A stretch of 64,000 nt of DNA, from assembly GCA_963764625.1 (NCBI GenBank), contig CAVXTH010000004.1, forward strand, positions 12,895-76,894, in the 5' to 3' direction. The stretch comes from Candidatus Krumholzibacteriota bacterium. Its GTDB lineage: Bacteria > Krumholzibacteriota > Krumholzibacteriia > JAJRXK01. Position numbers and translations under genes: made by a program. This document shows, piece after piece, positions 4,959 through 27,777 of the stretch; position 1 is the stretch's first letter, and each line of letters begins with the position of its first letter. The notes under the pieces are model-generated. The model saw only the letters and a program-made list of their open reading frames with translations. It did not search any database and was not told the DNA's origin.

Positions 4959-5405
4959 ATGCAACTAAAACGAATGAACAACGCGGCCCTATCCCTGGCA
5001 GTGCTTCTTGCGGCGTGCGGAAGCGATAGCAGCCCGACCTCTTCCGACAATTCCGGTAACGCTCCGCGCACGATCAAAGCCGACCCGTCCTTCGTAAATG
5101 ACGTGTTCGAAATTCTCCAGCGGAGACAATGTACCAGTAGCGGCTGTCACGGAGGTGGCACCGGAGGTCTCACCATGACTTCAGCATCCGTCGCTTTCTC
5201 CAATCTCGTGAACCAACCGGCGGTAGGAAAGACCGGAGAGATTCGCGTCATTCCCGGAGACGCCGAAGGCAGTTACATGGTCAAGAAGCTGGAGGGTGCC
5301 GCCGGAATCGTGGGTGAGCAGATGCCCCGGGGGATGACGCCCTTGGATGACATTGACATGTCAAACATCAAGAATTGGATCAACCAGGGCGCCAAGGATA
5401 ACTGA
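4959..5405 (+). CDS. Cytochrome c-like lipoprotein (CX4CH motif)
   Basis: LAAC lipobox; CTSSGCH; GEQMP; IKNWINQGA tail. Confidence 0.75.
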   Translation: MQLKRMNNAALSLAVLLAACGSDSSPTSSDNSGNAPRTIKADPSFVNDVFEILQRRQCTSSGCHGGGTGGLTMTSASVAFSNLVNQPAVGKTGEIRVIPGDAEGSYMVKKLEGAAGIVGEQMPRGMTPLDDIDMSNIKNWINQGAKDN

Positions 5406-6013: not shown

Positions 6014-6027
6014 CAGGGAGGCGTTTC

Positions 6028-6888: not shown

Positions 6889-6900
6889 GCTCTGGGAATC

Positions 6901-7500
6901 ATGGGTGACTCTAACGAACCACTTCATTTCGCCGATCCCGCATTCGTGAAGAAACTGCGAGCTGGAGACTCCGCCGCTCTGGAGAATGTCGTCCACGCCT
7001 ACTTGCCGCAAATTTTGCGTGCCGCGCGCGGTGCGGGTCTGGATCGTGAGCAGGCCGAGGACGTGACCCAGTCAGTCTTTCTGACCTTCGTGGAGAGTAT
7101 TGGCCGCTTCGAGGGGCGCTCGCACGTCCGCACCTGGCTATTCGGCATTCTCTATCGGAAGATCTCGGCGGGCTGGCGCGCGAAGCGTCGAGAGATCGGG
7201 CTCGACGACATCGATGGAATCGTGGAATCGCGCTTTGCTCCCGATGGCAGCTGGCTTCGTCCCCCTCGTGAGGCCGACCGGGAGACTCTGGATGCCGAAA
7301 TTCGCGCGAATCTGGCGGAATGCCTCGAGGGGGTGCCTGAGCGGCAGAGAATGGCCTTCGTGCTACGGGAAATCGAGGCCATGCCCACGACGGAAATCTG
7401 TAATGTAATGAGTGTGACGGACACTAACTTGGGAGTCCTTCTCTACAGGGTCCGCAACCGCTTGCGAGAGTGCCTCGAAAAGCGGAGCATCAGGGGGTGA
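6901..7500 (+). CDS. ECF RNA polymerase sigma-70 factor
   Basis: AEDVTQ..FEGRSHVRTWLFGIL region 2; LREIEAM..EIC..NLGVLLYRVRNRLRECL region 4. Confidence 0.93.
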   Translation: MGDSNEPLHFADPAFVKKLRAGDSAALENVVHAYLPQILRAARGAGLDREQAEDVTQSVFLTFVESIGRFEGRSHVRTWLFGILYRKISAGWRAKRREIGLDDIDGIVESRFAPDGSWLRPPREADRETLDAEIRANLAECLEGVPERQRMAFVLREIEAMPTTEICNVMSVTDTNLGVLLYRVRNRLRECLEKRSIRG

Positions 7501-7507
7501 GCGCGAG

Positions 7508-7798
7508 ATGCTGAAATGCCGTGAAGTCACCCGAATGGTGGCTGCCGACGCGATCGGTCGCGCGGGAATCCTCCGTCGACTCGAGCTTCGCCTGCACCTC
7601 ATGATGTGCCATCGGTGCAGAGCCTACGTCAGGGAGATTGGCCTTATAGGGAACGTCGCCCGTCACCTTTGGGGAAGTGAAGCGGAAGACGTCGAGAGCG
7701 CGGCGAGTGTTGAGCAACGCGTCCTGCAGGCGATTCGCGGAGCTGCGCCAACCGACTCATCCCCTGAAGTTGATCCGGAGATCCCGCCGACCGACTGA
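7508..7798 (+). CDS. Zinc-finger (zf-HC2) anti-sigma factor
   Basis: MLKCREV...HLMMCHRC motif immediately after the ECF sigma. Confidence 0.85.
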   Translation: MLKCREVTRMVAADAIGRAGILRRLELRLHLMMCHRCRAYVREIGLIGNVARHLWGSEAEDVESAASVEQRVLQAIRGAAPTDSSPEVDPEIPPTD

Positions 7799-7811
7799 AC
7801 CGCGCTTCCGT

Positions 7812-8471
7812 TCAATTCGCTGTTTGCCAGAGTGAGTTCGAGGAAGGCCCGAGCCACTTTCGACTCAGTGACCCCAGGATCAGTCCAAAGGCAAGGTGCG
7901 CCAGCACGACCGTCAGCGGCATGGCGGGCATCTTCGCTCCCATGAAGCCGATTCCCAACGCCTGCACCGCGGGACTCAAGAGGAACCCCAGGCCGATGAG
8001 CTGCGCGTAGATGATAGCCCAGAGAATGGGCTTTCTTCCCACCAGTACGGTGAAAATAAGTCCGAAGCTGACCCCGTTCCAGAAGTGGTACGCATATCCG
8101 AGGGTATCCGACCATGGTGACGGACCGAGCATGAAGCGATTCGTCAATAGAACACCGAGAAGACGCGGCATGTCGCCGGGCATTCCCCCCAAATGGAAGC
8201 TTACATTGCGTATGGCCTCCAGTCCGAGAGTCGCGACGAATCCCACGGCCGCTCCGGTCAAAGCTCTGTGAACCAACTCCCGCCGTCCCCGCACCGCCGC
8301 AATCACGATCACTGCGATGAGCAAAACGATGGAGGGCAAGAGCACTTTCATACCGAGCACGGACATCTTGGCCAGCCCAGTCTGTGCTGCGGGAAAGAGA
8401 TTGGGCGAGACGCCGGCGAAGATCACCAGCAACCCACCCAGAATGGTTCGCTCGTTCAAGAGGTGTCGCAT
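7812..8471 (-). CDS. Multi-pass membrane protein (unknown function)
   Basis: About 6 hydrophobic segments with His residues (YHFWNG, AHLAFG); AAGGAG RBS before ATG at 8471. Confidence 0.75.
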   Translation of the reverse strand: MRHLLNERTILGGLLVIFAGVSPNLFPAAQTGLAKMSVLGMKVLLPSIVLLIAVIVIAAVRGRRELVHRALTGAAVGFVATLGLEAIRNVSFHLGGMPGDMPRLLGVLLTNRFMLGPSPWSDTLGYAYHFWNGVSFGLIFTVLVGRKPILWAIIYAQLIGLGFLLSPAVQALGIGFMGAKMPAMPLTVVLAHLAFGLILGSLSRKWLGPSSNSLWQTAN

Positions 8472-8555
8472 GGATCTGCTCCTTGAAATGGGTTTCATCC
8501 TCGGGGCCTCGGACACTCGAGTCTTTTGAACTCGCTCCGATGCAACCGCCATTTC

Positions 8556-8586
8556 GTGAGTGATCCCAAGAGAACGATTCTTACAC
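8556..8586 (-). promoter_or_regulatory. Putative ECF-sigma promoter GTGTAAGAA-N15-CACTCAC
   Basis: Identical boxes and spacing to the plus-strand copy at 8652-8682. Confidence 0.65.
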
Positions 8587-8651
8587 TCTGAATGAACAGA
8601 GGTAAGGGAGTATCGAATCCTCTACGAAATCAGACGCAGCTTGGAATTTCT

Positions 8652-8682
8652 GTGTAAGAACCTACGCACCGTGCGCACTCAC
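8652..8682 (+). promoter_or_regulatory. Putative ECF-sigma promoter GTGTAAGAA-N15-CACTCAC
   Basis: Divergent twin of 8556-8586, about 65 nt upstream of the DUF302 gene. Confidence 0.65.
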
Positions 8683-8746
8683 TGGTCGTGAGCGCGGCGT
8701 TCCAGAGGGGGCGCCCGGATCAAGTACTCTGAGAAAGGCGTAGATC

Positions 8747-9229
8747 ATGAAGACAAAGAAGAATCCTCTTTTAATGACGGGGCTGTTGAGCCTTGTCCTC
8801 TTGCTGCTGCCCTTGGCGGGGTATGCGAGCTCCAATACCTCGACCACCACCGTCAGTCAGACGATTGTCAAGGGTTCGGTCGAGCAGACGCTCGACGCCC
8901 TTCACAAGCTCGTCGCCGACAACGGAATGATGGTCATGGGAGAGTTGCACCAGGGAAAGGTGCTCACGATGACGGGCCTGAAGGTGAAGTCCGAGTCGGT
9001 GTTCTTGGGCAACCCGAACGTGGGCAAGAAACTGTTCACGATCGAGCCCGGCGCCGGTGTGGCGTTGCCTGTCCGTGTCAACATCTTCGAAAACTCAGAG
9101 GGCAAGACCGTGGTGGCCTACATCCCTCCTTCCCAGCTACTCGCCAGTTTCGACAATCCAATGTTGGAGAAAGCGGCGGGAATGCTCGACGAAAAACTGT
9201 CGGGACTCGTAGGGATGCTGGACAAGTAA
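8747..9229 (+). CDS. DUF302 domain protein, exported
   Basis: FLGNP..GKKLF..PGAGVALPVRVNIFE..G.TVVAY.PPS pattern; signal peptide. Confidence 0.85.
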   Translation: MKTKKNPLLMTGLLSLVLLLLPLAGYASSNTSTTTVSQTIVKGSVEQTLDALHKLVADNGMMVMGELHQGKVLTMTGLKVKSESVFLGNPNVGKKLFTIEPGAGVALPVRVNIFENSEGKTVVAYIPPSQLLASFDNPMLEKAAGMLDEKLSGLVGMLDK

Positions 9230-9293
9230 TCGAACGGATCCCCGTCTTCGGGCGTACACGTCCCATGGCATACACTCAATCGCTGGAGAGCCA

Positions 9294-9323
9294 AACCGGG
9301 GCGATCGCAAGACCGCCCCGGTT
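9294..9323 (+). terminator. GC-rich hairpin after the DUF302 gene (probable terminator)
   Basis: AACCGGGGCG-ATC-GCAA-GAC-CGCCCCGGTT stem with GNRA loop. Confidence 0.5.
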
Positions 9324-9396
9324 GTCTGTACCGTCCCAGCTTACCGTCTTTTGACCCGCCGGCTGGAACATCGTAGCGAATCAGCGTGCCGGGATT

Positions 9397-10034
9397 TGTA
9401 GGATAGTCAGACTCTCCGAGACACATCAGCTGTTAGATCAACGCACACTGAAAGAGGTCTCGATATGAATCAGGAGGTGCTGGATGTCCTGCGAGCTCGG
9501 CGTCGGCGAACGATTCTCGAGTTAGCCGAGACCGTAGGGAACACAGTTGAGGGGTGGGAAGGGCTGCTTCGCAAGAGGCCCGTGGCGCGCAGTCACCCAA
9601 GGCAGATTTTTCCGGAGTTTGTGGAGAAGATCCTCCATTTGAGAGCCAACTACCACCTGGAACCCCAGAGAATCGCCTGGTATCTCGAGCGTTCCCATGG
9701 CTTCGTGACCTCCTGTTCGAGTGTCTATCGCACGCTCAAGCTTAAACGACTACTGACATGTGGAAGACAAGGCCATGCGGCATGTGTATATCAAGCCGCG
9801 GTCGCCACAGTTGAATGGCAGGGTTGAGAGGTCACATCGGACCGACCAGGAGGAGTTCTACCAGCTCTTGACGTACACGGATGATGTGGATCTGAACGCA
9901 AAGCTGAGGGAGTGGGAGAGGTTTTACAACCTCAGCCGGCCGTATGGAGCGCACAACGGAAAGACGCCTTACGAAGCTCTGAAACGTCTGCTAGAATAAC
10001 TGCCAATCTGTCCCGAAGGGTCCGGAACATCACA
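9397..10034 (+). mobile_element. IS481-family element remnant, internally deleted
   Basis: TGT...ACA ends with imperfect IR (inner 12/16); HTH fragment (QRIAWYLER...SSVYRTLK) joined to integrase C-terminus (HVYIKPRSPQLNGRVERSHRTD...YNLSRPYGAHNGKTP); central DDE part absent. Confidence 0.85.
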
Positions 10035-13073: not shown

Positions 13074-13179
13074 CATGCCTACCACATATTCCATTCGGGC
13101 TCAAATTCACGCCTGAGCGGCCTTTCGGTAGTATCGGTGGTGCAGCCCGGCAACGTGGATCTAATGAATGGTAGGGACA
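13074..13179 (-). mobile_element. MITE-like element, copy C
   Basis: Minus strand: CTGTCCCTACCATTCATTAGATCC end, interior AGLHHRYYRKAA, degenerate far end. Confidence 0.7.
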
Positions 13180-13197
13180 GCTGAGGCATATGCTAAA

Positions 13198-14652
13198 ATG
13201 ACCGCAATTTTGTCCCATGGGGTCCGGGATATCACAGTCTTCAAGTATTTCGGTCAACTGTGCCTCGCGCTCGGCGCACTGACGCTGGTGCCGTTCGCAA
13301 TGTCGCTGATCTTCGGCGAGTGGCACATCGCCCTGAGATATACCGTTGTGGTTTGTGGGCTAATCGGCTTGGGCTTGGGGACGGTCCGGCTGCGGGCTCC
13401 TTTCCGTGTGCAGGCCAATGAGGGCCTGGTGTTGGTCGCGCTGGTGTTTTTCTTCACTCCGCTGGTGTTGTCCTACCCGATGATGGGTGCGGGGTTGAAG
13501 TTTCTGGATGCCTTCTTCGAAGCTGTTTCCGCCGTGACGACCACGGGGTTGAGCACTAAGGCGACGCTCGTTGGCGCGCCGTCGACGTTTCTTTTTGCCC
13601 GCGCCTGGATGCAGTGGTACGGAGGGCTGGGCATCGTCGTCCTCTCGCTGGCGCTCGTAATGCAACCGGGGCTGGTGGCGAAAGGCCTGACTGCCTCAGA
13701 GATCGAAACCGGGGATTAGGGCGGTAGCGCGCGGGCACACGCGCAGCGAGTCCTGAAAGTCTATGGCGTTATCACCGCTCTGGGCATCATTGGCTCCCTA
13801 ATGCTGGGAGTCGGCCTTTTCGACGCGGTATTGTACACATTCACGGCGGTATCGACCGCAGGTTTTGCACCCCATGACAATAGCCTTGCAGCCTTAGGCT
13901 TGCTCCAACAGTGGTGGATTACGCTGCTTTGCCTCGCCGGTGCGATCCCACTGGCGTTCTATCACCGAATGTTAAAGGAGAGACGGCGCGTTGCAGTGGA
14001 CTTTCTTCAACTCCAGGCCGTGGTAATCGCTTGCCTGGTCGTTTCGCTAGCGGTGGGCGCTTCCATGCGGCTGAGTGCCGGCATGACTTGGCCACAAGTA
14101 CTCCATCACGCCCCCTTGCTGTCTCTCTCGGCGCAGACAACTACGGGTTTTGCCTCGACGCCGTGTGCGCAACTCGATGCGGGTTCCAAGCTGGTTCTGA
14201 TCGTCTCGATGCTCGTGGGAGGCGGAGTGGGATCGACCGCAGGCGGATTTAAGCTGCTGCGGCTGTTGATTGCAGTGAGCGTGTTTCGATGGATAATCCT
14301 GCGGACCTGCTTGCCGAAGCACGTTGTCACCGAACCTCGGCTGGCAGGCCGCCGACTGCAGAACGAAGAGATCTACGCGACCCTGCTGCTCATCGTACTG
14401 TTTGTCGTCGTCGTCACGCTGTCCTGGCTGCCCTTTGTGGCAATGGGATACGGCCCGCTCGACTCGTTGTTCGAAGTGGTTTCGGCGGTGGCAACGGCGG
14501 GGCTTTCGGTCGGGCTGTCGAGTGAAACATTACCCGCGCTGCTCAAGGGAGTTCTATGCGCTGACATGCTGATGGGAAGACTCGAAATCATCGCATGGTT
14601 AGTGCTGCTGTATCCAGGAACGTGGTTTGGCAGGAGAATGGAGGGAACATGA
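13198..14652 (+). CDS. trkH: TrkH potassium uptake membrane protein (in-frame TAG at 13717-13719)
   Basis: FEAVSAVTTTGLS, QWYGGLG, STAGF, GSTAGGFK, MGRLE motifs; the two ORF halves are in the same frame. Confidence 0.88.
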
Positions 14653-15335
14653 GAGTTGTTCTTATCGGAGCCGGAAGAGTGAGCGTCGAAACGGCCAAGG
14701 CGCTCATTAAAAAGGGCCATGAGGTCATCATCATCGAAACCGTCAAGGCCAAGATCGATGAATTATCCGAAGAGATGGATTGCAGCTTTCTGCTGGGCGA
14801 TGGCAGTCATCCTAGCCTCCTGTGCGAAGTCAATCCCGCGCAGACCGATTTCCTGTTTTGCTTGGCGGACAGCGACCAGGATAACATCATCGCCAGTCTC
14901 GTCGGCCGTTCCCTCGGTTTCAAGCGTATCGTGACGAGCATAGGCGATCCGCAGTTCGAGGATATCTGCCATGTGTTGGAGCTGGAGGACACGATCATCC
15001 GCTCTCGCACCATCAGCCGCTACCTCGAAGACATGGTGGGCGGCAGCAAAGACACCGAAATTTCTGCGGTCATCAAAGACGAGGCCCGGTTTTTCACTTT
15101 AATTGCAAAAGAGGAAGATACGGTCGCGGCAAAGGATCTGAAATTGCCTACCGATGCCAAGGTCATCTGCTATTACCGCGATGGCGAGTTTTCACATGCT
15201 GATAAAGAAACGAAATTCCGCATAGGCGACGAGGTTGTGATTCTCACACACAGCAAAAATATACCCGCGTTGCAGGAGCGTTGGCAGCCGAAGACCGCGC
15301 AGGAGGAGCCGGCGGATGCGGGCTCGCCGGGTTGA
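14649..15335 (+). CDS. trkA: TrkA potassium uptake NAD-binding subunit
   Basis: MRVVLIGAGRV Rossmann motif, GDGS, DQDNI; ATGA overlap with trkH. Confidence 0.9.
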   Translation: MRVVLIGAGRVSVETAKALIKKGHEVIIIETVKAKIDELSEEMDCSFLLGDGSHPSLLCEVNPAQTDFLFCLADSDQDNIIASLVGRSLGFKRIVTSIGDPQFEDICHVLELEDTIIRSRTISRYLEDMVGGSKDTEISAVIKDEARFFTLIAKEEDTVAAKDLKLPTDAKVICYYRDGEFSHADKETKFRIGDEVVILTHSKNIPALQERWQPKTAQEEPADAGSPG

Positions 15336-17897: not shown

Positions 17898-19553
17898 TCA
17901 GTGCATGTCGATGCGGGCGATCACGTAGGCATGGTCCGTCGCCTTGTCGCCAAGCTGGCCCGGCTTGACACCGATCAGCTCGTTTCCGTGCAAGATTTCG
18001 TATTCCATGCCGCGCTCTTCGGCGTGTAGCTTCGAGACAATGCCGTGCATGAGGGCCTCTGACTTGCCACGGTGGTTGTAGTCGTAGCGCTCCTCGCGCC
18101 GCACGCGGTCGACGAGGTTGATGCTCTCGTCCCCAAGCATTGCGCGAAGCGTTTCGCTGAACTCGAAGTCATTGAAATCGCCAGTGACGTAGTAATTGAT
18201 ATCGCGTTTGGTGAGATTCAAGAGCGTGTCCCGCACGAGTAACGCCTGACGTATGCGGGTCTCCATACGTGCATCGAATCCGGGGCGCTCGGGCGCGAAG
18301 ATACCGCGCTGGTGACGCTTCGATGCCAGATGTACGTTGATCACCGCGAGCTCGCGATTCGTGCTCAGCATGCGAAACCGCACCATCAGCGGCTTACGAG
18401 AATCCTCGAACGCAGCATCATCAGCGCCGATGCGTTGCACCGATCCCGACGCGATCGCGACGCGCTCAGGATTGTACAGAAACGCGTTGCGAATATTACC
18501 GCCAGGCTGGCCGCCGTCGGCTCCCGGCTGCGGCAGAACGTCCACCCAACGATACGTGGGGCCGCCGACCCTCCCAATGGCACGAACTAGTTTCTTGTAG
18601 TTTTCGTCGGCGTCCACGACATCCGTGATCTCCGCGCCGTCGTTGTCCTGCATTTCTTGAAGCGCAACGATATCGGGCGCCGCCGCATCGCGCGCGATCG
18701 CTGCGGCAAGCATCACGTAGCGGCCATCGGCATCGTCGTCGTCGATGTCGCGGCGCGGATCCTGTACGAGGCTCGGATCTTCGACGCGTGAATCGAGGTT
18801 GAACCCGTTGAGAGTGAGAATTGTAGCCTGCGTTGAGGTGGGCCCCAGCGTCGTTGGCTCGAGTTTGATGCTCGCAGGTCGCACCCGAATGCGCCCCAAC
18901 GCCGCGATCTGATACGACGAGACCCGGTAGTTCAGCGGTCCCACGACCGGAGACAGAAGTTCGGCTCCCACGTTGACCTTCGGCGCTCTCGAGTAGTCGA
19001 CGATTCGAAAACTCGGATACCAACGTTCTGGATTGTCCGGATCGACCAGCACTCCGCCGTGTCGCGTGCGCGTTGCGTTGGTTCCAGCCGGCGCGACAAC
19101 GTAGTCTCCGAACGGGTTACTCGGGGCCACAAACGTTGCCCCAGCTTCGATTCCCACGAGCATCCCCTCGATGCTATTGAGGTATGCCGCAAGCGCGTCG
19201 TTGTCGAGCGCAATGCGCTCAGCGGTAAGCCACACTGGTTTCAAGCGCGGCCCCTCGTCTGCGAGGGTTCGCGTGTCGACCGCGTGGATTTGCGTGGTGG
19301 GGCGTTCCGCTTCTTCCAAAACGAAGTCCGTTACTTGGCCCTGGACTTCGACAAGCGCGCCAACCGGGGGTTTGCGGCGAGGACTGAACACAAAGACCGC
19401 ATGCGAACAACCCGCTTCGCCGCCATCTGGATTTTGCACAAAAAACCCTTTGTGCGTGGTACCGGTAACGACACCGCGCGCGCACACCTCGGTTCCCGCG
19501 AGCGGAGACCGTAGGCCCGAGCCCTGAATGGCGTGTATGGGAGTGCACTTCAC
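17898..19553 (-). CDS. Endonuclease/exonuclease/phosphatase family protein with N-terminal OB-fold (ExeM/YhcR-like)
   Basis: IHAIQG..SPL.G..V..GVVT..GFFVQ; PDIVALQEMQDNDG; GGQPGGNIR; GDFND; TDH. Confidence 0.9.
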   Translation of the reverse strand: MKCTPIHAIQGSGLRSPLAGTEVCARGVVTGTTHKGFFVQNPDGGEAGCSHAVFVFSPRRKPPVGALVEVQGQVTDFVLEEAERPTTQIHAVDTRTLADEGPRLKPVWLTAERIALDNDALAAYLNSIEGMLVGIEAGATFVAPSNPFGDYVVAPAGTNATRTRHGGVLVDPDNPERWYPSFRIVDYSRAPKVNVGAELLSPVVGPLNYRVSSYQIAALGRIRVRPASIKLEPTTLGPTSTQATILTLNGFNLDSRVEDPSLVQDPRRDIDDDDADGRYVMLAAAIARDAAAPDIVALQEMQDNDGAEITDVVDADENYKKLVRAIGRVGGPTYRWVDVLPQPGADGGQPGGNIRNAFLYNPERVAIASGSVQRIGADDAAFEDSRKPLMVRFRMLSTNRELAVINVHLASKRHQRGIFAPERPGFDARMETRIRQALLVRDTLLNLTKRDINYYVTGDFNDFEFSETLRAMLGDESINLVDRVRREERYDYNHRGKSEALMHGIVSKLHAEERGMEYEILHGNELIGVKPGQLGDKATDHAYVIARIDMH

Positions 19554-19592
19554 TGGATTAGCTCGCTCTTCCGAAGTGGGTTACGATTAGGC

Positions 19593-19716
19593 TGTGCCAA
19601 CCCCTTCTTCCATTTGTTGTCGTATCCACGGCTACCCGACGTCCCGATAGTAGCGGTGGTGCGGCGCGCCGACCATAGGATGTTTGCGGACCGGCGGGAT
19701 CGAAATGGCGCGCGAA
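19593..19716 (-). mobile_element. MITE-like element, copy F
   Basis: Minus strand FRSRRS...PMVGAPHHRYYRDVG* then GGTTGGCACAG end. Confidence 0.65.
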
Positions 19717-19919
19717 ATAGGTTTAAATTGAGATTGAGCATCCATGAAACCTATCAGGTCGAACGCTGTAAGTTCAAGTCAGGCAACGCGGATCCAATAA
19801 ATCGGAGGGTCAGGACCAATACCCCGAGAATTGGCCTTTGAGGACTGCGTAACGCAATCCACATTTAGGATGGGGATGTTACATGAAACCGCAAGCCAGC
19901 TTGTCCATGTGAGGAGAAC

Positions 19920-21209
19920 GTGATGACGAAGCGACCGTTCAGCTCTTTCGAGATGGCCCAGCAGCAGTTCGATTCTGCGGCCGACATGCTCGGGCTCGAT
20001 CAGTCGGCCCGAGATCTATTGCGATATCCGATGAAAGAGTATTCCTTCGCAATCCCAACCCGCATGGACGATGGGGAAACTAGAATCTTCAGGGGCTTTC
20101 GTGTTCAGCACAACGATGCAAGGGGACCCTGCAAGGGGGGGATACGGTTCCATCCTCTTGAGACTTTGGACACAGTCCGGGCCCTGGCAATGTGGATGAC
20201 CTGGAAATGCGCCGTGGTCGATCTCCCCTTGGGAGGCGGAAAGGGAGGCATTGTCTGCGACCCGCACAATCTCAGTGCACGCGAGCAGGAGTCACTCTGC
20301 CGCGGATACGTGCGCCGTCTGGGACTGAACATCGGACCACATGTCGACGTGCCAGCCCCAGACATCATGACCACATCTCAGCACATGCTGTGGATGCTGG
20401 ACGAGTACGAGGCCATTCATGGAGATAGGCAGCCTGGCTTCATCACCGGGAAGCCGGTGGGGGTTGGCGGTTCTCAGGGGCGAACCGAAGCCACCGGATT
20501 CGGCCTGGTTTTCACGCTTCGAGAGGCCTTGAAAGAACTCGGACTCCGTGCCGAGGATACTACCGCCAGCGTTCAGGGCTTCGGTAATGTGAGCCGTCAC
20601 GCCATTCGGCTCTATCATCAAATCGGGGGAAGAACGATTGCTGTTGCCTGTTGGGATCAGCAGGATCAGACCAGCTACACCTACCGAAAGAAAGACGGTG
20701 TGGACCTTGACGAGTTGGTCGGCATTTCCGATCGTTTCGGCGGTTTAGACCGCGCCAAGGCCCAGGATCTCGGGTACGAAGTCCTTTCGGGGGAAGCCTG
20801 GCTCGAGCAGGACGTCGACATCCTGATCCCCGCGGCTCTCGAGAACCAGATTACAGCCGAGAACGCTGGGCAGATCCGCCCTCAAGTCAAGATCTTGGCG
20901 GAGGGAGCTAACGGTCCCACGACCCCGGAGGCCGACGAGATTCTCCAGGAACGGGGCGTGTACCTGATTCCCGATCTCCTTGCCAATGCCGGTGGTGTCA
21001 CCTGTAGCTACTTCGAGCAGGTGCAGAGCAACATGAACTACTACTGGGACCTGGATGAGGTTCTCGGAAAGCTCGACGTAAGGATGACGAGCGCCTTCAT
21101 GGCGGTGAACGGATTAGCGCAAAGGAAGAAGCTTCCCATGCGCACGGCCGCCTATGTCCTTGCACTCGATCGGGTGACCCAGGCTTGCCGCGACCGTGGC
21201 TGGATCTAG
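19920..21209 (+). CDS. gdhA: Glutamate dehydrogenase (Glu/Leu/Phe/Val dehydrogenase family)
   Basis: RVQHNDARGPCKGGIRFHP, GGGKGG, DVPAPD, GFGNV, EGANGPTT, ANAGGVTCSYFE. Confidence 0.95.
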   Translation: MMTKRPFSSFEMAQQQFDSAADMLGLDQSARDLLRYPMKEYSFAIPTRMDDGETRIFRGFRVQHNDARGPCKGGIRFHPLETLDTVRALAMWMTWKCAVVDLPLGGGKGGIVCDPHNLSAREQESLCRGYVRRLGLNIGPHVDVPAPDIMTTSQHMLWMLDEYEAIHGDRQPGFITGKPVGVGGSQGRTEATGFGLVFTLREALKELGLRAEDTTASVQGFGNVSRHAIRLYHQIGGRTIAVACWDQQDQTSYTYRKKDGVDLDELVGISDRFGGLDRAKAQDLGYEVLSGEAWLEQDVDILIPAALENQITAENAGQIRPQVKILAEGANGPTTPEADEILQERGVYLIPDLLANAGGVTCSYFEQVQSNMNYYWDLDEVLGKLDVRMTSAFMAVNGLAQRKKLPMRTAAYVLALDRVTQACRDRGWI

Positions 21210-21235
21210 CAGCGCTGCAGTAGTCGGAGTGAGGA

Positions 21236-22990
21236 ATGTCTAAAGAGTCCCAGCCGCAATCGATTCCAGCGTTCGACCGCACGTGGACGGCTTCCGGCGG
21301 CGTCAGTCGAATTGGCACCGGGGATATCGGCGGCAAGGCGCAGGGTTTGCTCCAACTCCGTGACTTGATTTCATGCATGGATTCTTCCGCATTCGAGCCG
21401 ATCGAGATTATCGTACCGACGTTCACTGTGGTCGCCACCGACGTGTTCGATGCGTTCCTCGACCGAAATGAACTCCACGGCCTTGCTCAGTCCGGGGAAT
21501 CGGATGAACGGATTGCCCATGCCTTTCAGAATGCACCGCTTCCCAGTGAGATACTCGGGGACCTGCGTGCACTGACGGAACGGGTCAAGTGGCCCCTGGC
21601 AATTCGGTCTTCCAGCCGACTGGAGGACGCGCTTCTTCGTCCCTTCGCCGGCGTCTATGAGACCAAGATGACACCCAACAACCAGCCGGATGCGAACACA
21701 AGATTCCAGAAGCTGGTAGAGGCGATCAAGTTTGTCTACGCCAGCACGTTCTTCCTCGCGGCCCGGGAGTACCTCAAGACCATACCTGACCAAACGGGTG
21801 ACGAGAAGATGGCCGTGATCATCCAAGATGTCGTGGGGGCCCGTCATCAGGAGCGTTTCTACCCCAACCTGTCCGGAGTGGCCCGCACGTTCAACTTTTA
21901 TCCCCTCGGGGACGTCGCGCGCGAGAACGGGATAGTCGACCTCGCTCTGGGGCTTGGCAAGATCATCGTGGACGAGGGGATCAGCTATCCGTACGTACCT
22001 TCTCATCCCAAACGCCCTCCACCGTTCTCATCCGTGCGTGATTTTCTGCAGAACTCCCAGACGGAGTTCTGGGCCGTCAACATGGGGAGGCCGCCGGCCT
22101 TCGACCCAACACGAGAGACGGAGTACCTCGTGCGGGCGACTCTCTCAGACGCCGAGTACGACGGCTCCCTAGCGCACGTGGCTTCAACCTACGATCCCGA
22201 GTCGGAGCGTCTTTCGCCTGGAGTCGGTCGCTTAGGCCCTCGGGTTCTGAGTTTCGCACCACTGCTCCTCCTCGACGAGTTCCCCTTCAACGCGGCCGTC
22301 TCGACTGTGATGAAAGAGTCCAGACGCAAGTTAGGAAGTGATGTAGAGATCGAATTTGCCATGACTTTTCCCGGTTCCCGACAGAGTGGGAATCCCTGTC
22401 TTGGCTTTGTCCAGGTTCGGCCTATGGTGACTTCCGACGAGATCGTCGATATCGATCCAGCCGAGCGTGAAGCTCCGAACCTCCTATTGTCCTCTGAGCG
22501 TGTGATGGGGAACGGGACTGTGGCAGACATCCGGGATGTCATCTATACCAAACCCAAGGGTTTCGACCTGTCCAATACACAGGCAATCGCCGATCAACTC
22601 ACGCAGTTCAACTCCAAACTTCTTGCGGCTGGGCGACCATACCTTCTCATCGGATTCGGGAGATGGGGTAGCTCGGATCCGTGGCTAGGAATCCCAGTCA
22701 AGTGGGGCCAGGTGAGCGGTGCCCGAGCTATCGTAGAGGCCACACTTGCGGAGCGTGTGATCGAGGCCAGTCAGGGGACGCACTTTTTCCACAATATCAC
22801 GAGCTTCGGGGTTAGCTATTTTCATGTGAGCGGCAGCGCGACCCCGGGAATCCAGTGGGATTGGCTTGACTCCAGAGTCGCTGATCTGGAGACCGAGCAC
22901 TTGCGACACATCTGCCTTGATAGGCCCCTCACCGTGAAGGTGGACGGACGGTCCGGCCTGGGCGGCATCTGGTTTCCGGAATCGGCCTGA
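21236..22990 (+). CDS. PEP/pyruvate-binding (PPDK N-terminal ATP-grasp-like) domain protein
   Basis: IGGKAQGL, AIRSSSRLED..PFAGVY, EKMAVIIQ, GFGRWGS, SQGTHFF. Confidence 0.9.
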   Translation: MSKESQPQSIPAFDRTWTASGGVSRIGTGDIGGKAQGLLQLRDLISCMDSSAFEPIEIIVPTFTVVATDVFDAFLDRNELHGLAQSGESDERIAHAFQNAPLPSEILGDLRALTERVKWPLAIRSSSRLEDALLRPFAGVYETKMTPNNQPDANTRFQKLVEAIKFVYASTFFLAAREYLKTIPDQTGDEKMAVIIQDVVGARHQERFYPNLSGVARTFNFYPLGDVARENGIVDLALGLGKIIVDEGISYPYVPSHPKRPPPFSSVRDFLQNSQTEFWAVNMGRPPAFDPTRETEYLVRATLSDAEYDGSLAHVASTYDPESERLSPGVGRLGPRVLSFAPLLLLDEFPFNAAVSTVMKESRRKLGSDVEIEFAMTFPGSRQSGNPCLGFVQVRPMVTSDEIVDIDPAEREAPNLLLSSERVMGNGTVADIRDVIYTKPKGFDLSNTQAIADQLTQFNSKLLAAGRPYLLIGFGRWGSSDPWLGIPVKWGQVSGARAIVEATLAERVIEASQGTHFFHNITSFGVSYFHVSGSATPGIQWDWLDSRVADLETEHLRHICLDRPLTVKVDGRSGLGGIWFPESA

Positions 22991-23043
22991 AGCCGGGACA
23001 AGAACTTCACGCCGGAAGCCCGAGCGTCAGGAGGAGATAGACG

Positions 23044-26000
23044 ATGCCAGCCCCCGAACGTCCAGCTGTGAAACTTCTCAAGGCTCTCCAGGAACGGGCG
23101 AAGGAACTGAACTGTCTTTACGGCGTTGACGAGGTGCTCAGCCGATCGGAAGCGCAAGAAGACGACGTTTACAAGGATCTCCTGGAAATCATCCCACCTG
23201 GCTGGCAGTACCCCGACGTGTGCCAGGCCCGAATCACGATCGGACGGCACGCCTACGCGTCCGCTGCCTACAAAGAAACAAAGTGGACTCTGAACTCAGA
23301 CATTACAGTTCGCGGCGAGAAGGTGGGGGATGTGGCCGTCTCCTACGTGGAGGAGCTCCCACACATAGACCGTGACAGTCCCTTTCTCGCTGAGGAGCGC
23401 CGACTCATTCTGGCCATCGCCGAGCGCATAAGTCTCTTCGTCCTTCAACGCCGCCTGAGGCGCGATCACGAGACTTGGGAGCGAGCAGTTCACGGAATCG
23501 AAGATCGCGGAGAGAGACCCTGGCTGGTCCTGCTCGACTTCCTCCAGCGCACCGACAAAAATCTTTTCGCCCGAATCGCACGAAAGATGGTCAATCATCT
23601 TTGTTGGAACGACGTTGCGAAGGCGCATGATCTCTTGGAGGCGAGTTTTGCGTTCATCGAAAAAGAGGGCGAATCGGACGACAACCGACCACTCGAGAAA
23701 CGTCAATTCGCCGACATGGCTACGTGGGCAAAGACCGTCTTCGAGACAGCGGCGGAGCATCTCAGTGATGCGGAGATCATTTCCAACGTTCAGGCTTGGA
23801 TCAACGAGGAGAATTCCACTTACCTGATCAAGTCGCTGGAAAACCCCGGCACGGGCTTGTCGGAATTGTCTGATGCCGTCATTCGGTTCAAGAACTCATC
23901 CATCAACGAGTCCGAGCTGTCTTTCGCCGTCAGGATGAGCCTACGAGTAGCGCTTTTGCGGCGCTTCTTCGTGGACCAACTGGACTTTATCTCTGTGGCC
24001 AAGAAACACGTCCGCGTGGAGGACTTCTACGACCTCGTCCAACGCTTGATCTATCCTGAGCGGAGCCAGGGAAAGATCGGCGGCAAGGGAGCAGGTCTGT
24101 TTCTGGCCACTCAAGTTGTTCGAAAGGCAACTGAGTACGCGGATTCCCTCCGGAACATCAAGTTTCCAAGGACCTGGTACGTCGCATCTGACGGAATCCT
24201 GGATTTCATTCAGCACAACACACTCAATGAGGTGTACAACCAAAAGTACATGGACATCGAACGAGTGCGACAGGACTACCCGCAAATCATCCAGGTGTTC
24301 AAGAACTCGCACTTTCCCACGGAAATCGAGAAAGGCCTCGCAGTAGCACTCGATGACCTCGGGGATTGTCCGATCATCGTCCGCAGTTCGAGCATCTTGG
24401 AAGATCGTCAGGGTTCCTCCTTCTCGGGAAAGTACAAGAGCCTCTTTCTCGCCAACCAGGGGTCAAAAGAGGAGCGTCTGGATGCACTGAAGGACGCCAT
24501 TGCCGAAGTATACGCCTCGGTGTTTTCCCCAGATCCGATAGAGTACCGAGCCGAACGCGGACTTCTCGACTTCCGCGAAGAGATGGGAATCCTCATCCAA
24601 CAGGTTGTGGGATCCCGTATAGGCAAGTACTTCCTGCCCGCTTTTTCGGGAGTCGCCTTTAGCAACAACGAATTCCGATGGTCTCCTCGGATCAAGCGCA
24701 GGGATGGGCTACTCCGTATGGTTCCCGGACTGGGTACTCGCGCAGTAGACCGTGTGAGCAATGACTATCCCATCCTCGTGAGCCCCGGAAACCCGGGGCT
24801 TCGAGTCAACGTCTCTCCCGACGAGACGATTCGGTACTCTCCCCGATGCGTGGACGTCATTGACTTGGAGACGGGCGTTTTCGGTACCGTCGATGCTGTT
24901 GCCCTCTTGCGCGAGACTGGGGACGAGTATCCCATGGCCCGTGAGCTCGTCTCAATCGTCGAGGGGGATCGATTGCGGCGACCGCTAGGCTTGGGCCCGG
25001 ATTGGGAGAAAGGCGATTTCGTTATCACTTTCGACGGCCTGATCAGCTCAACTCCATTTGTTGGGCAGATGAACGTCTTGTTGAAGCTCCTCCGAGAGAA
25101 GCTTGAAACACCCGTAGACTTGGAGTTCGCCTGCGATGGACAGGATATCTACATCGTCCAGTGCCGGTCGCAAAGCTCTCGCGCCGAACACGCGCCGGCG
25201 GAAATCCCGCGCGACCTGCCTAGTGATAAGGTACTCTTCTCTGTCAACCGATACGTGTCCAATGGGTATGTGCCGGGAATCTCCCATATCGTATACGTTG
25301 ATCCCGACCAATACTCCCGTCTTTCCGAACTTCGTGAGTTGGCTGATGTTGGCCGGGCGGTCGGCAAGCTGAACAAGCTGCTCCCCAGCCGCCGGTTCAT
25401 CCTCATTGGCCCGGGTAGGTGGGGAAGCCGGGGTGATATCAAGCTCGGGGTGAGTGTGACTTACTCCGATATCAACAATACGGCGGTGCTGATGGAGATA
25501 GCCCGGAAAGCCGGGAACTACCTGCCTGATCTGTCCTTCGGAACTCATTTCTTTCAGGATCTCGTAGAATCTGACATTCGTTACCTGCCGCTCTACGCAG
25601 ACGAACCGGAGACTGTCTTCAAGGAAGACATGCTCCGCCGGGCTACCAACCTTCTCCCGGAGATTCTGCCTGAGTTCACGCACATCGCCGACGTGCTGCG
25701 AGTGATCGACGTGGCGAAGGAAAGGGATGGAGAGATTCTCAGGATTCTCATGAACGCAGAGTTGCGCCAGGCGGTCGGTGTGTTCGCGAAATCAGAGGCC
25801 GTTCCGGAGCCGAGTTCGCGAACGGAAAGTGCGCCGGAGGCTCCTCCCGAGAGTCACTGGCGGTGGCGAATGCGGATGGCCGAGAAGATTGCAAGCCACC
25901 TCGATCCGACGCGTTTTGGCGTCAAGGCAGTCTACGTGCTCGGGAGCACGAAGAACGCCACCGCCCGGTCTGGCAGCGATCTCGACCTCATCATTCACTT

Positions 26001-26235
26001 TGCGGGCAGCGAGGCTCAGCGCGCAGAACTCCAACTCTGGCTGGAAGGATGGAGCCTTTCCTTGGCAGAGAGCAACTACCTTCGGACTGGCTACAGATCT
26101 CAAGGCTTGCTCGACGTCCACTTCATCAGCGATCAGGACATCGCCAACAAGACGAGCTATGCTGCCAAGATCAATGCCGTGACGGATGCCGCTAGGCAAC
26201 TCCCCATGGCGACTGCACGGAGGAAGGGATCTTAG
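23044..26235 (+). CDS. PEP/pyruvate-binding domain protein with N-terminal sensor-like region and C-terminal nucleotidyltransferase domain
   Basis: ERAKELNCLY...IPPGWQYP N-terminus; IGGKGAGL, VRSSSILED..FSGKY, GPGRWGS, SFGTHFF; C-terminal YVLGSTKNA.A..GSDLDLII. Confidence 0.9.
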   Translation: MPAPERPAVKLLKALQERAKELNCLYGVDEVLSRSEAQEDDVYKDLLEIIPPGWQYPDVCQARITIGRHAYASAAYKETKWTLNSDITVRGEKVGDVAVSYVEELPHIDRDSPFLAEERRLILAIAERISLFVLQRRLRRDHETWERAVHGIEDRGERPWLVLLDFLQRTDKNLFARIARKMVNHLCWNDVAKAHDLLEASFAFIEKEGESDDNRPLEKRQFADMATWAKTVFETAAEHLSDAEIISNVQAWINEENSTYLIKSLENPGTGLSELSDAVIRFKNSSINESELSFAVRMSLRVALLRRFFVDQLDFISVAKKHVRVEDFYDLVQRLIYPERSQGKIGGKGAGLFLATQVVRKATEYADSLRNIKFPRTWYVASDGILDFIQHNTLNEVYNQKYMDIERVRQDYPQIIQVFKNSHFPTEIEKGLAVALDDLGDCPIIVRSSSILEDRQGSSFSGKYKSLFLANQGSKEERLDALKDAIAEVYASVFSPDPIEYRAERGLLDFREEMGILIQQVVGSRIGKYFLPAFSGVAFSNNEFRWSPRIKRRDGLLRMVPGLGTRAVDRVSNDYPILVSPGNPGLRVNVSPDETIRYSPRCVDVIDLETGVFGTVDAVALLRETGDEYPMARELVSIVEGDRLRRPLGLGPDWEKGDFVITFDGLISSTPFVGQMNVLLKLLREKLETPVDLEFACDGQDIYIVQCRSQSSRAEHAPAEIPRDLPSDKVLFSVNRYVSNGYVPGISHIVYVDPDQYSRLSELRELADVGRAVGKLNKLLPSRRFILIGPGRWGSRGDIKLGVSVTYSDINNTAVLMEIARKAGNYLPDLSFGTHFFQDLVESDIRYLPLYADEPETVFKEDMLRRATNLLPEILPEFTHIADVLRVIDVAKERDGEILRILMNAELRQAVGVFAKSEAVPEPSSRTESAPEAPPESHWRWRMRMAEKIASHLDPTRFGVKAVYVLGSTKNATARSGSDLDLIIHFAGSEAQRAELQLWLEGWSLSLAESNYLRTGYRSQGLLDVHFISDQDIANKTSYAAKINAVTDAARQLPMATARRKGS

Positions 26236-27074
26236 ATAAGTCGCCGGTCAGCTCGTGCGGGATCCTCGAGATCAAAGCGCACCAATGCGAGCTCAGGGCC
26301 GTCGTGGGCGGCGCCAAACAAGTAAGTTCGACCTAGTCGTTGCCGCCACGATCCGGTTAGCCGTGCGGATTCGTGAACGTGCCCGTGCAAGCTGACATGT
26401 GGTTGCTTCAGCTCGATGAATCGGCGCACTGCGATGCTTCCGACGTGCACGTCCATCGGCACGTGGTCGATCATTCTACCGTCCAGGGCCGCTCGGTCGA
26501 GATTCGTGTCATGGGGTGGACCGTGGAATAGGAACACAGCGCGGTCTGTTGGGGAGTCCCCTACCAATTTTTCCAAGTCGGCCGCAATGGTTCCGTACCG
26601 GATATCATGGTCCCTCACTGCGACTGAGCGGTTCCCTTCCTCCGGGGACACGCAACCAGGTGGTACGTAGCGCCCAACGTCATACTTCTCCCAATCCTTG
26701 AACAGAAACGGTGTTGGGGGAACGTAGGAGTAGCCGTAGACCGCGTACTCGTCGAGAACGTGGCAGCGGCCGTGAACGTAGTGCCAAAGGCCGCCGAACT
26801 CCTGTCCGAGGAGAGCGTCTTCCTCCACCCTTCCGTCGTCATTTCCAAGAATCAATAGTACATGGGGGTAATCCTCAGCCAGGCTCTTACGAAGGCCACG
26901 AAAACCAGAGGCAAGGAAATCCCGAAGGAACTCTTCATCAGGATCCAAAAGCCAGGGAGATGGAAAAAGGTCGCCCCCGAGAAACACTACCGCGGGGCGC
27001 TCCTGACGGATGGCGTGAAAGAGCTTCTGGTACCGGTCCTTGCGACCGTGCAGATCAGAAGCGAATAGGCACAT
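26232..27074 (-). CDS. Metallophosphoesterase (calcineurin-like)
   Basis: SDLHG, GGDL, GNDD, H.PP, LHGHVHES. Confidence 0.92.
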   Translation of the reverse strand: MCLFASDLHGRKDRYQKLFHAIRQERPAVVFLGGDLFPSPWLLDPDEEFLRDFLASGFRGLRKSLAEDYPHVLLILGNDDGRVEEDALLGQEFGGLWHYVHGRCHVLDEYAVYGYSYVPPTPFLFKDWEKYDVGRYVPPGCVSPEEGNRSVAVRDHDIRYGTIAADLEKLVGDSPTDRAVFLFHGPPHDTNLDRAALDGRMIDHVPMDVHVGSIAVRRFIELKQPHVSLHGHVHESARLTGSWRQRLGRTYLFGAAHDGPELALVRFDLEDPARADRRLI

Positions 27075-27273
27075 TCTCAAGTGCACAACTCCTGGTCTAC
27101 GCTGCGAAATCCGACGCGCCATCCATCCAAGCTATTGGCGCTCCTTCTCAACGCACTGAACAGAGGACACTTCAGATAAGGTATCCCTAAGCCCTCGAAG
27201 GGAGTGTACCATGTCTGATTCTACGAGTCCCGGGGATAAAGCAACCCCTGTGCCTACCCCCCCGCGCTCATCA

Positions 27274-27777
27274 TTAGCTACCGAACTGGGCGTAGACATC
27301 CTCATAGAGTTTCTGTGACTTCTGCAGAGCGGCGTCGAGCGCGGGCTTGACGTTCTGCTGCCAGTCCTCGTCGCTGGCGTCCCTCGCCTCCACAAGTTTC
27401 GCTTTGGCCGTGGCGAGAGCCTCAGCCATCTGCTTGTCGGCGTCCTGTAGTTCGACCTTGGCTTTGTCGGTAGTCGGCGTGGCCTTAACTAGCAAAGCCT
27501 GCCAATCCTGTTCGATCTCAGCGAGCTTCTCCTGGGCGGCCTCGACGGCCTCGTCCTTCGGCTGATTCAGGAACTCGCCCGTAGCCTGTACGGCGTCGCC
27601 GAGGGCGTCGCCGGTGGTCGTTGCTGCGTCGCTGATGACATCAGCGGTTTTGTTTGCTGCATCGCCAACCGCGTCGCCGGCGGCCCTGGCCTTCTCGGCT
27701 GGCGTTTTGTTCCCGCACGCTGTCATTCCGAGCGCCAGCACGATCAGGACCATGAAAGTCCCCAGTTTTTTCCTCAT
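27274..27777 (-). CDS. Alanine-rich helical lipoprotein
   Basis: MRKKLG...MTAC lipobox; amphipathic repeats. Confidence 0.75.
   Translation of the reverse strand: MRKKLGTFMVLIVLALGMTACGNKTPAEKARAAGDAVGDAANKTADVISDAATTTGDALGDAVQATGEFLNQPKDEAVEAAQEKLAEIEQDWQALLVKATPTTDKAKVELQDADKQMAEALATAKAKLVEARDASDEDWQQNVKPALDAALQKSQKLYEDVYAQFGS

Follow-up and report, generated by a model that had tools for sequence, protein, structure and literature searches.

The subject of this work is a four-gene cassette found in a 64,000-nt stretch of DNA (the window) from Candidatus Krumholzibacteriota bacterium, which corresponds to positions 12,895 to 76,894 of the forward strand of contig CAVXTH010000004.1 in assembly GCA_963764625.1. 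The first gene, gdh (19920..21209, + strand), encodes a cassette-type glutamate dehydrogenase (GDH) of 429 aa, belonging to the hexameric Pyrococcus/Thermococcus-like class, with the Pfam domains ELFV_dehydrog_N (E 6e-54) and ELFV_dehydrog (E 2e-68); its best solved relative is 1euz (E 8e-122). It is followed on the same strand by genes of two dikinase-like proteins, a short one of 584 aa (21236..22990) and a long one of 1063 aa (23044..26235), both containing the ATP-grasp domain PPDK_N (PF01326; E 9e-29 in the short and 3e-55 in the long protein). These three co-oriented genes are separated by 26 nt (gdh and short) and 53 nt (short and long). The fourth gene, on the opposite strand, encodes a metallophosphoesterase (Pfam Metallophos, E 2e-8) and converges with the long gene, the two overlapping by 4 nt (26232-26235). 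Its open reading frame (ORF) covers 26232..27122 (- strand) and gives 296 aa from the first ATG at 27122; position 27074 is the second Met, and since orthologues in the alignment start mostly level with residue 15, 13 or 1 of the window protein, 27074 is a plausible start. All four ORFs are real genes and not chance ORFs. The same arrangement had been described in an earlier reading of this DNA (below, the original prediction), and ORFs, Pfam and paralogue alignment agree with it. Sigma-70-like promoters and terminators within 19400-27500 showed no excess over shuffled sequences, and no Rfam family was found across the whole window.

The short and long proteins are paralogues, with 30% identity over 548 columns (E 3e-28), a span that includes the region behind PPDK_N. 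In the short protein, PPDK_N covers residues 31-402 (21326-22441) and is followed by a C-terminal domain of residues 405-584 (22448-22987). Ahead of the ATP-grasp domain lies an N-terminal peptide (residues 1-18, 21236-21290) with the conserved L-P-x-F-D-R-x-F-F, in which F13 is invariant and at least 90% of 33 rows retain R15; this peptide is possibly a docking motif. The long protein has the same core, with PPDK_N at residues 344-724 (24073..25215) and a predicted swivel-like C-terminal domain at residues 725-905 (25216..25758), recognized by alignment with the corresponding domain of the short protein. The core is preceded by a putative GAF-like sensor domain (residues 1-135, 23044..23448) and a helical linker region (residues 136-340, 23449..24063; helices predicted at 116-333, no Pfam family). 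It is followed by a minimal Pol-beta-type nucleotidyltransferase (NTase) domain (residues 930-1063, with the stop codon 25831..26235), where Pfam gives weak matches to NTP_transf_2, Polbeta and MTPAP-like (residues 934-1000), PF01909 scoring 22.2 bits against a cut-off of 21. The motifs G.GRWGS, S.GTHFF and GS...DLD, listed in the original prediction, are all present on direct reading: GFGRWGS at 473-479 and SQGTHFF at 512-518 of the short protein, GPGRWGS at 789-795 and SFGTHFF at 831-837 of the long protein, and LGS at 966-968 with SDLDL at 978-982 in the NTase domain.

The simplest reading of two PPDK_N proteins would be an ordinary phosphoenolpyruvate (PEP) synthase or pyruvate phosphate dikinase (PPDK), and some sources indeed name relatives "phosphoenolpyruvate synthase" or "pyruvate, water dikinase". 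However, Pfam finds neither the PEP-utilizers domain nor the PEP-utilizers_C barrel in either protein, which agrees with the lack of a pyruvate-binding barrel noticed originally. The NCBIfam PEP-synthase models reach 15-62 bits on these proteins against cut-offs of 598-1063. Moreover, other parts of the genome code for three canonical PEP-utilizers proteins (frames of 896, 793 and 599 aa; PPDK, PEP synthase and Enzyme I-like), so the cassette is no substitute for these enzymes. At the level of domain content, as judged from sequence, this explanation is already refuted, and we consider it extremely improbable.

Among solved structures, the best sequence relative of the ATP-grasp domain is the rifampin phosphotransferase (RPH) RPH-Lm (PDB 5fbs and 5hv1, E 5e-5 to 7e-6). 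According to the publication on RPH-Lm, residues Lys22, Arg117 and Thr136 hold the ATP phosphates and their mutation abolishes rifampin resistance in vivo, the Lys22Ala variant also losing activity in vitro, and His825 is the phosphate carrier (PMC4844700). In the HMMER alignment to 5fbs, K348, R447 and S466 of the long protein align with Lys22, Arg117 and Thr136, and the equivalents in the short protein, obtained via the paralogue alignment, are K34, R124 and T143. These residues are kept in at least 97% of rows among 75 short proteins (the window and 74 of the 80 related loci described below, with complete ORFs of 560-610 aa) and 56 long proteins (the window and 55 of 76 loci, with ORFs of 1040-1090 aa). 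The NCBIfam RPH and PigC models match the N-terminal 150-200 residues only, with 20-45 bits against cut-offs of at least 999. In the NTase domain, the G-S motif (G967, S968), the D-x-D pair (D979, D981) and a third carboxylate (D1024) are kept in at least 97% of the 56 rows. The phosphoesterase (PF00149, 35.5 bits against a cut-off of 21.5) retains its metal motifs D23-x-H25, G50-D51, G93-N94, H200 and G247-H248-x-H250 in at least 97% of 44 rows; no solved relative was found for it by sequence, and in the protein atlas it falls into generic metallophosphoesterase clusters only. In the LPLGGGKGG motif of the GDH (residues 103-111), the glycines G105, G106, G109 and G110 do not vary among 33 rows, of which at least 90% retain K108. 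Judging by these residues, all the enzymatic parts of the cassette (ATP-grasp, NTase, phosphoesterase and GDH) keep their catalytic equipment, and none resembles a pseudo-enzyme.

The second element common to both paralogues is the C-terminal domain, which starts within about 5 residues of the end of PPDK_N. In an alignment of 59 such domains, in which short, long and receiver-fused paralogues (see below) are mixed, the invariant positions are G-N-G, N, G-R-(W)-G, E and S-x-G-x-H-x-F. The invariant histidine, found in all 59 rows, is His516 of the short protein (codon 22781..22783, within SQGTHFF) and His835 of the long protein (25546-25548). The AlphaFold2 model of this domain has a mean pLDDT of 94. 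With this model Foldseek gave no match at E <= 0.001, and its matches include PPDK entries and the isolated PPDK phosphoryl-carrier domain at probabilities of 0.44-0.87. In a Foldseek-independent structural search of 48,161 chains, phosphohistidine swivel domains took ranks 1-4, 6, 7 and 9, namely the C-terminal domain of B. stearothermophilus pyruvate kinase (2e28, Z 7.1), which we take to be PEP-utiliser-like, the PPDK phosphoryl carrier (2fm4, Z 7.1), residues 755-867 of RPH (5hv1, Z 6.9), residues 383-511 of maize PPDK (1vbg, Z 6.8), and Enzyme I and EI-Ntr (5woy, 2wqd and 5t12, Z 5.7-6.1). The motif S-x-G-(T/S)-H-F-F stands in place of the canonical G-G-x-T-S-H; in the model, a strand and a loop lead up to helix 111-119, which begins with the invariant His, and the G-G-x-T-S-H helix of canonical domains is arranged likewise. 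On the basis of the model, the most likely identity of the C-terminal domain is an enlarged swivel domain of great sequence divergence, whose His occupies the catalytic position. The weight of this assignment comes from the consistency of the matches and from the position of the domain after PPDK_N, as in RPH. A low-confidence local alignment by hhalign, which places GRWGS opposite the canonical GG-x-TSH loop, was rejected, as it agrees neither with the order of the secondary-structure elements nor with the position along the structural matches. The pair is therefore not simply "swivel-less". The original proposal that the THFF His is a phospho-His candidate is supported in so far as the fold places this His like the catalytic His of swivel domains, whereas its phosphorylation is deduced.

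How general the cassette is can be judged from two samples of genomes. Homologues of the short protein number at least 8000 (all 8000 scored candidates have E <= 0.001), and the only names they carry in the sources are "PEP/pyruvate-binding domain-containing protein" or "hypothetical". The literature searched yielded no paper about the cassette, subscription journals and supplements lying outside the coverage. The first sample consists of the best 80 of 198 related stretches, one genome per species, chosen by similarity. These loci come from at least 12 phyla, mostly from Acidobacteriota, and further from Gemmatimonadota, Ignavibacteriota, Bacteroidota, Calditrichota, Zixibacteria, Planctomycetota, Fibrobacterota, Chloroflexota, KSB1, Fermentibacteria, Coatesbacteria and unclassified metagenome-assembled genomes. 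The gdh gene lies directly upstream and co-oriented in 76 of the 77 loci with room for it (L025, L039 and L077 in split pieces; L002, counted among the 76, has a 37-residue end only, beside a 100-N scaffold gap), and one locus (L080) holds the short-long pair without gdh upstream. The long paralogue follows the short one in all 76 loci with room, and none of the 14 other flanking ORFs of the window recurs in any of the 80 loci. Because the neighbours recur across loci while these flanking ORFs do not, the conserved unit is exactly these four genes.

The second sample, 61 genomes evenly drawn from the phylum of the window, shows the same association without selection by similarity of the locus. 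The profile of the C-terminal domain has matches in 59 of these genomes, and GDH domains are present in all 61. Among 130 strong matches to the C-terminal domain, 106 have a GDH-domain match no more than 7 kb away on their contig, and at least one such pair exists in 52 of the 59 domain-bearing genomes. Conserved linkage to gdh across genomes, named in the original prediction as a check on itself, is thus clearly observed in both samples. Furthermore, at two loci (L135 and L139; G006:C4 and G051:C1) a cassette-type gdh is located beyond the phosphoesterase gene, its strand being the same in L135 and the opposite one in L139; since the gene order differs there yet gdh stays, the link outlasts rearrangement. 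Some peculiarities of individual loci were also noticed. On an Anaerolineaceae contig (L072:9620-13194), a second GDH-like gene (34% identity) and then a long-type paralogue (39% identity) lie just downstream of a full four-gene cassette, so that two cassettes adjoin. In two otherwise intact long genes, single in-frame stops occur near the invariant His motif (residue 831 in L001 and residue 843 in L029); they may be sequencing errors, recoding or recent inactivation.

The relation between the short and long proteins can be approached through natural gene fusions. A search for longer proteins with the C-terminal domain returned 13 homologues of 1523-1655 aa, and all 13 are fusions in the order short then long. 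In one of them (P0129), identity to the short protein is 49% over residues 6-572, and identity to the long protein is 55% over residues 584-1633. Pairwise identity among the 13 reaches down to 40%, so several lineages hold such fusions. This Rosetta-stone pattern argues that the short and long proteins form one complex, as far as gene fusion can predict it.

The inputs of this putative complex are suggested by the region ahead of the long ATP-grasp domain. The AlphaFold model of residues 1-345 (pLDDT 79) consists of a small alpha/beta domain (about residues 1-135) and a helical region. Foldseek matches of this N-terminus are mostly GAF domains (NifA, Nlh1/2, CodY, PtsP, phytochromes and PDE5/6), at probabilities of 0.96-1.00 but with E values of 1e-2 to 0.3 and TM of 0.26-0.58, on a model of pLDDT 79; the GAF sequence families PF01590 and PF13185 gave no Pfam match on the N-terminus. 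Based on the model, the N-terminal domain is a candidate GAF-like domain. A different input is found at a second GDH locus of the same genome (3.57 Mb in 9 contigs, 96% complete). There, on contig C9 (locus L081), a GDH of 448 aa, 32% identical to the window GDH, is encoded at 8072-9418 (- strand), and directly after it (4983-7997, - strand) comes a paralogue of 1004 aa composed of a receiver (REC) domain, PPDK_N and the C-terminal domain, followed by gcpE/ispG. This receiver-fused paralogue has a weak match to DUF5752 (E 0.0017) and no NTase. As the second GDH precedes a member of the family, two unrelated GDH classes are each paired with it. A GAF-like or receiver input placed on the same ATP-grasp/His core is the layout of a signalling output.

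The GDH itself also differs from its relatives. Cassette-linked GDHs of all phyla are 62-77% identical to the window GDH, in comparison with 35-46% for unlinked GDHs of the same class and the same phylum. The NCBIfam GdhA_Arch model scores 470 bits on the window GDH against an equivalog cut-off of 750, which fits a separate GDH clade. A quick maximum-likelihood tree, with the careful search unfinished, was built from 57 rows (27 of the 76 GDHs of the first 80 loci, 18 cassette-type and 8 unlinked same-class GDHs of the window's own phylum, 3 of the 448-aa class, and the window GDH). In this tree, 46 rows, that is 45 linked GDHs and one cassette-type GDH without the neighbour, form one clade with SH-aLRT 100, in which the phyla are intermingled and whose stem measures 2.2 changes per site. 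Comparison of 89 in-group GDHs with 8 outgroup sequences reveals 40 private residues and two private insertions, one at 20649-20666 (residues 244-249) and the other at about 20754-20765 (about residues 279-282). The G-x-G-x-x-S dinucleotide fingerprint is followed by a strand, and the C-W-D-Q-x-D-Q insertion appears to lie immediately behind that strand, a placement in the Rossmann fold derived from sequence. These insertions could alter cofactor handling or form a docking site. Since the linked GDHs form a separate clade with private residues and insertions, the data speak for co-adaptation of the GDH with the short-long pair, at least at the sequence level.

Some long ORFs had suggested fusions of the GDH with the receiver-type paralogue. 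The frames of 1445-1452 aa examined in L176, L177 and L179 proved to be long chance-open frames in GC-rich DNA, the genes there being separate and in different frames, and this candidate was rejected. One protein of 916 aa (P0257) combines GDH, receiver, PAS and HD-type domains in a single chain, so GDHs in other lineages can be wired directly to signalling domains. A complex prediction for GDH residues 15-429, taken as a monomer (the native form is a hexamer), with the short protein, based on 33-row alignments and run without controls, gave scores of 0.01 and 0.00 against a mark of 0.32 and is evidence for neither side.

The specialised GDH clade allows a catalytic explanation of the cassette. 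It assumes that the heterodimer docks on the GDH and performs dikinase chemistry on GDH-bound 2-oxoglutarate, on the carbinolamine/imine or on glutamate, so that the GDH reaction or a branching reaction becomes ATP-coupled and the GDH stands in for the missing substrate-binding domain. The main argument for it is the highly conserved clade itself, with its long stem, its 40 specific residues and the CWDQxDQ insertion after the second strand of the dinucleotide fold. It is also consistent with all ATP-site residues being kept in both paralogues, with the lack of a substrate-binding domain in the pair and with the co-orientation and tight spacing of the pair with gdh. Dikinases of the superfamily normally phosphorylate small molecules via the swivel His, as described for RPH (PMC4844700). 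On the other hand, the GAF-like and REC inputs and the presence of NTase and phosphoesterase are found more typically in signalling than in a core enzyme of metabolism, and literature searching on the cassette gave no precedent for such a reaction. In addition, glutamine synthetase (GS) and a GOGAT-like gene are present in the genome and leave no obvious gap to fill. We consider this explanation unlikely. Its most far-reaching form would make the short-long pair a catalytic add-on, in which the swivel His carries phosphate into the GDH active site and activates 2-oxoglutarate or the carbinolamine. Bacteria would thereby gain an ATP-driven way of assimilating ammonium, the third next to GS-GOGAT and plain GDH, gated by the GAF-like domain and reset by the NTase and phosphoesterase. 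Apart from the specialised clade of GDHs and the lack of a substrate domain, the data give no specific support to this form, and it seems very improbable.

The distribution of the NTase domain and the phosphoesterase separates them from the rest of the cassette. In 6 of 66 judged long proteins the NTase is absent, the protein ending at about residue 920, and these loci, which belong to three phyla (three from Gemmatimonadota, two from Acidobacteriota and one from Ignavibacteriaceae), keep gdh, short and long. An adjacent convergent phosphoesterase gene is present in 48 of the 66 judged loci, all of them among the 60 with NTase and none among the 6 without it. The counts are thus 48 loci with both, 12 with NTase only, 0 with phosphoesterase only and 6 with neither (Fisher p 2e-4, uncorrected for kinship). 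A genome-wide search found no phosphoesterase orthologue in any of 5 genomes without the NTase; among 5 genomes that have the NTase but lack the adjacent gene, the orthologue is found elsewhere at full length in 2 and as a fragment in 1. Within the phylum sample, 37 long-type loci were picked from the 130 matches: both activities are encoded in 22, the NTase without a neighbouring phosphoesterase gene in 11, and neither of them in 2, while the last 2 leave no room. Since the phosphoesterase occurs only where the NTase does, these two activities are an optional add-on to the core of GDH, short and long protein. As a separate observation, at two Gemmatimonadota loci with an NTase-less long paralogue (L003:12621-16247 and L009:12567-16256), the gene after this paralogue begins in a manner resembling, as we presume, the N-terminus of the 2-oxoglutarate dehydrogenase E1 component; if so, there would be one more connection to the 2-oxoglutarate node.

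These data bear on the writer/eraser idea of the original prediction. In this explanation the NTase is the main writer and nucleotidylates the GDH, as GlnE does with glutamine synthetase, the phosphoesterase is the eraser, and the ATP-grasp/His parts sense or supply the nucleotide. The retained catalytic residues of the NTase and metal motifs of the phosphoesterase, and the loss of both together, are in accordance with it. The same can be said of the genomic background: the GlnE domain (PF03710) was found neither anywhere in the genome nor in the long protein (the GlnD family was not searched genome-wide), and the genome, 96% complete, yielded no match to PII (PF00543), which is missing in 35 of the 61 genomes of the phylum sample (found in 26). 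PII is present in both genomes lacking the C-terminal domain and in 24 of the 59 that have it, numbers too small and from genomes too related to carry weight. However, the NTase is dispensable, as the six truncated long proteins show, and the receiver-fused paralogue beside the second GDH lacks it; therefore, the conserved core of the link to GDH is the ATP-grasp/His module and not the NTase. Moreover, 12 of the 60 NTase-bearing loci have no adjacent phosphoesterase. Nucleotidylation as the main switch is distinctly unlikely. What stands of the idea is the joint loss of the two activities, while covalent modification of the GDH and its chemistry are hypothetical.

The explanation tentatively preferred here, to which a probability of about 0.4 is assigned, is that a sensor-gated, His-autophosphorylating short-long heterodimer controls the dedicated GDH, with a nucleotidylation/hydrolysis add-on. 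It is proposed that the short and long proteins would each bind ATP in the PPDK_N ATP-grasp domain, and that a phosphoryl (or pyrophosphoryl) group would pass to H516 of the short and H835 of the long protein in the swivel domain, as in PEP synthase, PPDK, RPH and the regulatory kinase VadK. The phospho-His form would then act on the neighbouring GDH, either by phosphoryl transfer to it or by phosphorylation-dependent binding, as proposed for VadK; the GDH is put forward as the target because the pair has no pyruvate- or drug-binding domain. In this way, the GAF-like domain of the long subunit would sense a metabolite that sets the activity of the GDH, and at the second locus a two-component signal via the REC domain would replace the metabolite input. 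The NTase and metallophosphoesterase would form a second, optional cycle, writing and removing a nucleotidyl mark. In this scheme we infer the phosphorylation of the His, the GDH as target, the sensor ligand and the substrates of the NTase and phosphoesterase.

Several points weigh against this proposal, and the first group concerns the swivel domain. The structural assignment has a Z of about 7, the level that models without a true match typically reach as their best Z. Pfam at E <= 0.1 gives no match on either C-terminal domain, PF00391 included, and in hhalign the comparison with 31 canonical PEP-utilizers domains from this phylum reaches a probability of 0.2%. The invariant His falls on RPH His825 by linear interpolation along the structural match and not by residue-level superposition, so their equivalence in the model is deduced from secondary-structure order and position. 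The second group concerns the target. Contact between the GDH and either protein is unsupported by any result here, and a fusion of GDH with PPDK_N is absent among 62 longer GDH homologues, which is weak evidence. The two phylum-sample genomes without the C-terminal domain still carry GDHs, so GDH as such does not need the family. Finally, two intact, co-transcribed paralogues and a specialised GDH clade with an insertion by the dinucleotide-binding strand fit a catalytic partnership at least as well.

The lack of any sign of contact or fusion would also be expected if the GDH were a co-regulated neighbour only. In such a case, the pair would be a signalling kinase or a small-molecule dikinase with its target elsewhere, and both it and the GDH would respond to or supply the 2-oxoglutarate/glutamate pool. 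The pair in L080, which has no gdh upstream, and the 24 of 130 phylum-sample matches located beyond 7 kb of a GDH match are in line with this, but 19 of these 24 have no GDH match on their contig, some being at a contig end. Moreover, the linkage spans at least 12 phyla, two unrelated GDH classes and differing gene orders (L135, L139), and a separate clade of linked GDHs is not expected from mere co-regulation. Simple co-regulation is decidedly improbable.

Apart from the cassette, one irregularity was noticed in the window. At 13168-15335, TrkH is apparently divided between ORFs of 183 and 283 aa, a TrkA-like gene comes next, and this split may be a frameshift or an assembly error.

GDH is placed at the junction of carbon and nitrogen metabolism, and its control in most bacteria is poorly understood in comparison with that of glutamine synthetase. 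The four-gene unit ties a dedicated GDH clade to ATP-grasp/phospho-His enzymes with putative sensor inputs in many phyla, and in the phylum of the window it is nearly universal (59 of 61 genomes). If the proposal is correct, bacteria of soil, sediment and gut would possess a major regulatory or energetic device of nitrogen metabolism that has so far gone undescribed. The natural short-long fusions simplify expression, H516, H835 and D979/D981 are targets for mutation, and in natural variants lacking the NTase the core stands apart from the add-on.

A comparison with known systems helps to place the cassette. With respect to architecture, the nearest described system appears to be VadK (Rv1127c) of Mycobacterium tuberculosis, a PPDK-derived regulatory histidine (di)kinase. 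The publication describes it as a PPDK reduced to the ATP-grasp and His domains, which autophosphorylates on His422 and has methylcitrate-cycle enzymes as interaction partners (PMC13400623). VadK and the cassette proteins have in common the His domain (putative in the cassette) directly after ATP-grasp and the lack of a PEP/pyruvate barrel, and VadK is proposed to control metabolic enzymes by direct interaction and not by PEP synthesis. The His domain of VadK is canonical, whereas that of the cassette is unrecognisable by sequence, about 60 residues larger and equipped with its own GRWGS loop. The cassette also differs in having two paired paralogues, sensor or receiver inputs, NTase and phosphoesterase, and its partner would be GDH and not the methylcitrate-cycle enzymes reported for VadK. 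RPH-Lm shares the ATP-phosphate residues and the order in which the His domain, putative in the cassette, lies on the C-terminal side, its swivel His domain matching the C-terminal domain of the cassette at Z 6.9. However, in RPH a rifampin-binding domain of 440 residues is inserted between the ATP-grasp and His domains, and the cassette proteins have no such domain. PEP synthase and PPDK are similar in PPDK_N and in the fold of the next domain, which in the cassette is probably of swivel type, but the cassette proteins lack the PEP-utilizers_C TIM barrel (PF02896), and their His domain is undetected by PF00391.

Another similarity concerns the nitrogen phosphotransferase system. In PtsP/Enzyme I-Ntr, a GAF sensor is fused to a phospho-His swivel-domain enzyme that serves nitrogen-related control, and both the PtsP GAF domain (3trc) and the EI-Ntr His domain (5t12, Z 5.7) are among the fold matches of the cassette domains. 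EI-Ntr is charged from PEP via its TIM barrel and passes the phosphate to NPr, whereas in the cassette the donor would be ATP via ATP-grasp, and there is no HPr-like acceptor in the cassette. GlnE and GlnD control glutamine synthetase and PII by nucleotidylation. As an analogy only, they resemble the cassette in having a Pol-beta-superfamily nucleotidyltransferase tied to a central nitrogen enzyme, together with a paired removing activity. The cassette NTase differs from them in being of a minimal type of roughly 130 residues, whose nearest models are NTP_transf_2, Polbeta and MntA, and no GlnE/GlnD domain is found in the long protein; the eraser would be a separate metallophosphoesterase, and the NTase is optional. 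A further example of a GDH controlled by a product of its own operon is known from Thermus thermophilus, where APRTh, a catalytically inactive phosphoribosyltransferase homologue, mediates activation by AMP. The T. thermophilus GDH (3aoe) and the cassette GDH belong to the same hexameric class, whereas APRTh has none of the ATP-grasp, His or NTase chemistry that the cassette proteins would bring to their GDH.

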